Below are positions 59,470-59,744 of a stretch of DNA of 64,000 nucleotides, piece after piece. The notes under the pieces are model-generated. The model was not told the DNA's origin, searched no databases, and saw only the letters and a list, made by a program, of their open reading frames with translations. This DNA comes from Escherichia coli. GTDB lineage: Bacteria; Pseudomonadota; Gammaproteobacteria; Enterobacterales; Enterobacteriaceae. The DNA is taken from the NCBI RefSeq assembly GCF_041886205.1, contig NZ_CP169029.1. One strand, 5' to 3'. Each line of letters begins with the position of its first letter. Position 1 is the stretch's first letter. Position numbers and translations under genes: made by a program.

Positions 59470-59568
59470 ATGAGAACCAAGGTACAGGCTTTACGGAAGA
59501 AACAAAAAAATACATTGGATCAAATATTTAAAATTCCTGTTCCTCAAGGGATCAAGTGTCTGATATAG
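59470..59568 (+). other. 32-codon ORF with Shine-Dalgarno running into hicA in another frame (leader peptide or frameshifted N-terminus)
   Basis: ATG at 59470 preceded by AAGGA; encodes MRTKVQALRKKQKNTLDQIFKIPVPQGIKCLI; ends 13 bp inside the hicA-like ORF. Confidence 0.3.
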
Positions 59569-59744
59569 AGTCACTGGTTAAAGCATTAGGCGGAGAAATT
59601 AAGGAAGGAAGAGGTTCGCGTTGTAAGTTCATACTAAATATGAGCGTTGCGTGTTTCCATCGGCCTCATCCGTCGCCAGATACCGATAAAGGCGCTGTAG
59701 AAAGCGTGCGTGACTGGTTACTAAGTATAGGGGTAAAACCATGA
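59556..59744 (+). CDS. HicA-family toxin (type II toxin-antitoxin mRNA interferase), 62 aa
   Basis: GTG start; EGRGSRCKF ... FHRPHP ... GAVESVRDWL pattern resembles the HicA fold; stop overlaps the downstream start (ATGA). Confidence 0.65.
   Translation: MSDIESLVKALGGEIKEGRGSRCKFILNMSVACFHRPHPSPDTDKGAVESVRDWLLSIGVKP

Follow-up and report, generated by a model that had tools for sequence, protein, structure and literature searches.

Positions 59470-59744 of the 64,000-nucleotide stretch of Escherichia coli DNA analyzed here (the window) hold two overlapping reading frames next to an antitoxin gene, and the question is whether these frames represent a leader peptide followed by a short HicA-like toxin or the two pieces of one broken toxin gene. 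The initial annotation had left this choice open. It had described a 32-codon ORF with an AAGGA Shine-Dalgarno sequence and an ATG at 59470 that overlaps a GTG-initiated ORF by 13 bp, and this arrangement is indeed seen in the sequence and in the ORF listing. We conclude with high confidence that the interval holds a hicA toxin gene that has been inactivated by the loss of one base and lies in a hicAB type II toxin-antitoxin operon between yhhJ and nikR (Table 1).

Table 1 Features of the hicAB locus in the window and the basis of their assignment
Feature	Position	Strand	Description and basis
yhhJ	58189-59397		Flank of hicAB; E. coli core genome
Putative sigma-70-like hicAB promoter	59409-59436	+	TTGACT-16 nt-TACTAT; consensus scan, 9/12 matches; assigned from the pattern only
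Four operator-like repeats TGAnnTCATA	59410-59459	+	TGACTTCATA, TGATGTCATA twice, TGAAGTCATA; repeat scan
Shine-Dalgarno sequence AAGGA of hicA	59459-59463	+	Ends 6 nt 5' of ATG 59470; sequence reading
hicA pseudogene	59470-59744	+	275 bp; aligned to the intact 276-bp/91-aa allele; PGAP 'frameshifted'
Upstream ORF	59470-59568	+	ATG, 32 aa, MRTKVQALRKKQKNTLDQIFKIPVPQGIKCLI; ORF listing
C-to-T substitution, Thr22Ile	59534	+	Linked to the deletion; also on the intact allele of strain ET350
Downstream ORF	59556-59744	+	GTG, 62 codons, HicA dsRBD-like core; ORF listing, Pfam, structure model
1-bp deletion site	59557-59559	+	Window TGT vs intact TGG T; one G of the Trp30 codon gone
hicB antitoxin, intact	59741-60100	+	119 aa; Pfam HicB PF05534, 56.8 bits
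AT-rich hairpin with T-rich tail, terminator-like (putative)	60155-60187	+	Between hicB and convergent nikR; pattern scan
nikR	60220-60621	convergent	Flank of hicAB; E. coli core genome

The stretch shared by the two ORFs (59556-59568) is read in differing frames. Alignment to the intact allele showed that the upstream ORF consists of the native HicA codons 1-29 followed by the out-of-frame residues C, L and I and the stop codon TAG, and that the GTG ORF contributes its start codon and the native residues 31-91. With the Pfam profile HicA_toxin (PF07927; curated cut-off, 27 bits), the scores were 36 bits for the GTG product and 37.6 bits for the 91-aa protein after repair of the frame. In this repaired protein, the Pfam domain spans residues 30-80, all of which the GTG ORF retains as a domain.

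The lesion itself is small. Where the intact allele has GG, the window has a single G at 59558, so that the intact reading ATC AAG TGG TCT GAT turns into ATC AAG TGT CTG ATA TAG. The suggestion that the toxin gene once began at 59470 and suffered a single-base indel is thus borne out by the intact allele, which is a single 276-bp, 91-aa ORF, and by the PGAP call 'frameshifted'; the position given for the indel, near 59556, is corrected by the alignment to 59558. In strain 350 the intact protein is WP_001259385.1, named a HicA family toxin by PGAP, and its paired HicB is WP_000593555.1. The intact allele of strain 350 and O157:H7 strains matches the window with 99.5% identity across 731 nt and shares with it the yhhJ-side locus, the promoter and operator-like repeats (the same in the alignment with strain 350) and the HicB protein; it differs in that the codon-30 G is retained, residue 22 is Thr and not Ile, and the gene is one ORF. 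Apart from the missing G, a single C-to-T exchange is all that separates the 5' third of hicA in the window from the intact allele. Beyond the deletion, the remnant has accumulated one SNP and nothing further, which indicates that the deletion event is recent.

A 731-nt query covering the locus matched 2075 of the 5426 complete E. coli genomes, and nearly all of its high-identity matches span 732 nt, i.e. one nucleotide more than the query. The allele family to which the window belongs comprises about 1280 genomes, of which about 99% have one continuous 91-aa ORF and 536 match the intact O157-type 82-mer exactly. PGAP calls the identical gene a 'frameshifted' pseudogene in six RefSeq genomes (PT62, PapM-32-1, LHM10-1, ET201, VE-T9 and wlxctx60); the frameshift of the window's hicA is therefore already known and marked in public annotation.

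To place the upstream residues, we searched a sequence database with the 91-aa protein and obtained 221 homologues. The full-length ones are 84-92 aa long with 92-100% query coverage and occur in Citrobacter, Klebsiella, Serratia, Xenorhabdus, Dickeya, Pectobacterium, Rahnella, Sodalis and Azospirillum, and also in Acidobacteriota. Shorter database entries are all from Enterobacteriaceae, nearly all from E. coli, and each of them is either an incomplete sequence, the product of a frameshift or a variant with an in-frame deletion. In an alignment of 27 sequences, L16, P23 and W30 do not vary, and at least 90% of the sequences share T15 and F20; the deletion falls in the codon of Trp30, present in 27 of the 27 aligned homologues. 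An AlphaFold model of the repaired protein, built on the same alignment, had a mean pLDDT of 92.8. It contains an N-terminal helix at residues 10-19 (block pLDDT 96) that is confidently placed before the core, and the core itself was modelled as helix 30-39, strands 43-46, 51-56 and 59-64, and helix 74-86, a dsRBD-like alpha-beta-beta-beta-alpha fold. Since the 29 N-terminal residues are conserved across genera, we conclude that the upstream ORF is ancestral coding sequence and not a leader peptide.

This conclusion bears directly on the leader-peptide reading, in which the upstream ORF would be coupled by design to the translation of a GTG-initiated HicA that is short by nature (62 aa). Such an arrangement would fit the good Shine-Dalgarno sequence and ATG, the 13-bp overlap with the GTG ORF, and a length of about 60 aa, which is canonical for HicA toxins, but it conflicts with the continuous ORF in nearly all genomes of the allele family, with the conservation of the supposed leader as protein in distant genera, in frame with the core, and with its modelling as a confidently placed helix. 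The orthologue alignment rules it out, and we regard its probability as practically negligible. The 62-aa form, which had been considered plausible on its own, is absent from all full-length orthologues; instead of being uniformly about 60 aa long from the GTG, as had been named as the outcome that would speak against a broken gene, the homologues are 84-92 aa long.

Programmed -1 ribosomal frameshifting or transcriptional slippage would be another way to keep the two frames functional, as it would produce full-length HicA at a low level, a dosed toxin. The downstream frame is indeed -1 relative to the upstream frame, and upstream of the lesion there is a run of seven A (59506-59512) with an A-AAA-AAT heptamer that is formally slippery. 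However, a TAA is present at 59529-59531 in the HicA frame, so that a shift at the A7 run would terminate at once and the gene is not rescued there. Reading of the sequence between 59532 and 59556 revealed no slippery site of the type X-XXY-YYZ, and both the species and the family normally have the gene intact and unshifted. The TAA and the lack of a later slippery site rule out programmed frameshifting or slippage at the A7 run; judged from the sequence, programmed frameshifting at the window's hicA is very unlikely, to the point of being negligible.

The missing base could also be a sequencing or assembly error in a gene that is really intact. Single-base indels are the commonest assembly error, and the window departs from the intact allele family by one indel; the site, on the other hand, is a GG dinucleotide and no homopolymer run, and the deletion recurs in other assemblies. 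An 81-mer across the site was found as an exact match in nine complete genomes, and VE-T9 has the deletion with one additional SNP. In other words, nine further complete assemblies besides the window carry the deletion, eight of them identical over the 81-mer, plus VE-T9. The allele is rare: of the 5426 complete genomes, approximately 1280 of which belong to the allele family, about 10 carry the deletion. The isolates were obtained in several countries, and their sources are baboon, pig, pigeon, cattle, human, frog and bear. The T at 59534 is common to all of them. Strain ET350 has this T together with an intact GG, and its allele is a plausible ancestor-like form as far as the sequence tells.

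The flanks of the carriers differ as well. The window and wlxctx60 (NZ_AP045833.1, 4145215-4170215) are reported as 100.0% identical, with 25,000 nt of the window (39001-64000) compared with 25,001 nt; the hicAB segment shows zero differences and the rbbA-yhhJ flank one mismatch in 2880 nt. The same flank of PapM-32-1 differs from the window at 73-74 of 2880 nt, and downstream of hicB this strain has an aldolase/HPr/FGGY island and not nikR; despite this different background, it is identical to the window across 59356-59784. Since the deletion is present in at least ten independent complete genomes with two flank haplotypes, it is an inherited allele and not a sequencing error. Its constant linkage to the T at 59534 points in the same direction. 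Recurrence in ten assemblies on two haplotypes rules the error out, and an intact gene behind the window's sequence is highly improbable. In the simplest reading of these sequences, the deletion would have had one origin and would then have been spread by recombination.

Alternatively, the broken gene might still be functional: ribosomes reinitiating at GTG 59556 would make an active 62-aa HicA core that is neutralized by HicB, and the module would be attenuated but not dead. The 62-aa ORF keeps the full Pfam HicA domain, and intact hicB is kept alongside it. An SD-like AAGGGA is found at 59546-59551, 4 nt 5' of GTG 59556, and this GTG sits 10 nt before the stop of the upstream ORF. Because the SD-like motif precedes a GTG that overlaps the upstream stop, some 62-aa product could arise by reinitiation. 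In addition, solved HicA toxins work without an N-terminal extension. Against this, the initiator Met would take the place of the invariant W30, and the product would lack the conserved helix part (T15, L16, F20, P23) that is modelled with very high confidence in the fold. The SD-like motif is mere coding sequence for Q-G-I, found in intact alleles too, and the many other knock-outs of hicA in E. coli (see below) suggest that loss of the toxin is tolerated. We consider a working remnant unlikely, and, from its sequence, the 62-aa core would be unlikely to be active even if made. Because the GTG ORF keeps the domain and the characterized HicAs of 57-70 aa have no extension, the loss of toxin activity is something we infer and do not state as an observation; the loss of the single reading frame is observed.

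The intact form of this protein belongs to a HicA subfamily with an N-terminal extension. A Foldseek search with the model gave HicA structures as top matches (6g26, 1whz and 6hpb; target TM-scores of 0.65-0.67 with weak E-values), the best being B. pseudomallei HicA (6g26_E). The solved HicA toxins matched are 57-70 aa long and have no N-terminal extension, whereas the subfamily found here has a conserved one of about 29 residues. A search of PDB sequences with the single protein gave no match, and a profile search gave one weak HicA match; no NCBIfam model matched HicA or HicB. In characterized HicA RNases, as known from work on B. pseudomallei and E. coli, the His of the G-S-H motif is catalytic. 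In the 27 homologues, the corresponding place is taken by an invariant G49-S50-R51 (59614-59622 in the window), and a profile alignment with a weak E-value of 0.13 put R51 onto the His of RGSH in PDB 9svk_A. The subfamily thus differs from canonical HicA in having Arg where the GSH-motif His would stand, as seen in the alignment and in this weak profile match. Two other His residues are retained: H64 is conserved in at least 90% and H67 is invariant in the 27-sequence alignment. Our literature searches found no paper on this specific hicAB locus and no report of experimental work on the GSR-type, N-terminally extended HicA subfamily. The window copy has the Pfam profile score and, in the model of the repaired protein, the fold of the HicA family, and it lacks both an intact translatable ORF and the GSH His. 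The missing His is a trait of the subfamily as a whole and is separate from the frameshift. Since the codon-30 deletion splits the gene, this copy is a pseudogene of the HicA family and not a functional member.

The remainder of the operon is intact. hicA (59470-59744) lies upstream of hicB (59741-60100), adjacent and on the same strand, and the hicB start overlaps the hicA stop by 4 bp (ATGA). A separate AGGGG for hicB is located at 59729-59733, 7 nt 5' of its ATG. Strain 350, whose hicA is intact, and wlxctx60 encode the same HicB protein, WP_000593555.1. HicB residues 76-116 gave matches to ribbon-helix-helix (RHH) type proteins that were all below the cut-offs: Pfam Arc with an E-value of 0.0077, CopG_antitoxin with 0.016, FitA-like RHH with 0.21, and the Arc repressor structure 1b28 with 0.27. 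Of the four TGAnnTCATA repeats, the outer units are exact reverse complements of each other, and all four overlap the putative promoter. Characterized hicAB modules are autorepressed by an RHH HicB (PMC10865869), and the repeats here are probably the HicB binding site.

By gene order and antitoxin type, with a weak RHH match of HicB, the locus is probably a Class 4 hicAB module (Gerdes 2024, PMC10865869). It resembles characterized hicAB modules in the order of hicA before hicB, the 4-bp overlap, the dsRBD-like fold of HicA, the repeats over the promoter and the weakly Arc/RHH-like C-terminus of HicB, but its hicA carries a frameshift in the window. The HicAB module of E. coli K-12 (Class 3, PDB 6hpb) has a toxin of the same Pfam family and fold class; in contrast to the window's module, it is a distant paralogue at another locus, its HicA has 58 aa without the extension, and its HicB uses an HTH domain where the HicB of the window is weakly RHH-like. 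BLASTP against K-12 HicA gave no alignment, a weak negative.

The hicAB module is situated at the edge of an integration hotspot. The region 3' of hicB (from the equivalent of window position 60101) is variable: in some strains, as in the window, nikR follows directly, and in others there is an island encoding a class II aldolase, an HPr-family protein and an FGGY kinase (PapM-32-1, strain 350 and ET350 were compared). In K-12, the interval equivalent to that downstream of hicB presumably holds rhsB.

Taken together, the ancestral gene encoded a HicA of 91 residues with an N-terminal helix part of about 29 residues before the dsRBD-like core, and one G of the Trp30 codon was lost in the window's lineage. 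With this G lost, ribosomes starting at ATG 59470 would read 29 native codons and C-L-I and stop at the TAG at 59566-59568. The remaining toxin sequence survives only as the GTG-initiated ORF, and full-length toxin can no longer be made. Since hicB is unchanged and has its own AGGGG, production of HicB and repression of the operon by it should continue. With promoter, repeats and hicB untouched, the locus now most likely gives rise to an orphan antitoxin that regulates its own operon, with no full-length toxin beside it.

The window is not the only place where this toxin gene has been broken. Other disrupted alleles at the locus in E. coli carry independent mutations at other positions. PCP07014 has a 2-bp deletion in an A-run of hicA (L004:1591-1864), and a frameshift in a G-run leading to a 55-aa product is present in 588 contigs and in 7 complete genomes (L012:1501-1668). 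Further lesions include frameshifts and an insertion, both located after 'NMSV', and an in-frame deletion of 8 aa (proteins P0011, P0068, P0071, P0072 and P0094). A TAA as codon 2 of hicA (ATG TAA ACA CAG) was found in 788 of the 5426 complete E. coli genomes, on a mosaic allele of the KSC64 type. This allele (L003:1577-1852) has no in-frame ATG, GTG or TTG before Met58, and PGAP annotates it as an intact 76-aa HicA from a CTG start (WP_042014162.1); judging from its sequence, the toxin has probably been knocked out here as well, without a pseudogene flag in the annotation.

In the first approximately 150 nt of hicA (window 59463-59622), the KSC64-type allele diverges from the window by about 15%, and it is identical to the window over the remaining hicA and the whole of hicB (59623-60110). 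This switch from divergence to identity indicates a recombination breakpoint inside the toxin gene. The allele also lacks exactly one 14-bp operator unit, TGATGTCATACTAT (equivalent to window 59423-59436), and the loss of this unit recreates a similar -35/-10 spacing via the next repeat. hicB remains present in the examined loci with a disrupted hicA, and the HicB protein is WP_000593555.1 in the intact, KSC64-type and window-type alleles that were checked.

These findings settle the annotation question: the interval is a single pseudogene and not a leader peptide with a short toxin. The locus carries little weight by itself; it is a textbook case of a chromosomal toxin-antitoxin module in which the toxin has been lost and the antitoxin kept. 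Because hicA has been knocked out independently many times at one locus in E. coli, toxin loss with retention of HicB may be favoured and not neutral, with the orphan HicB acting as an anti-addiction or immunity factor against an incoming HicA of the GSR-type, N-terminally extended subfamily, or with the 62-aa remnant persisting as an attenuated toxin; we consider this a speculative and rather unlikely reading. The recurrence of independent hicA knock-outs, in a subfamily whose HicA has Arg where the canonical catalytic His would stand, could be of interest for the field of toxin-antitoxin evolution.
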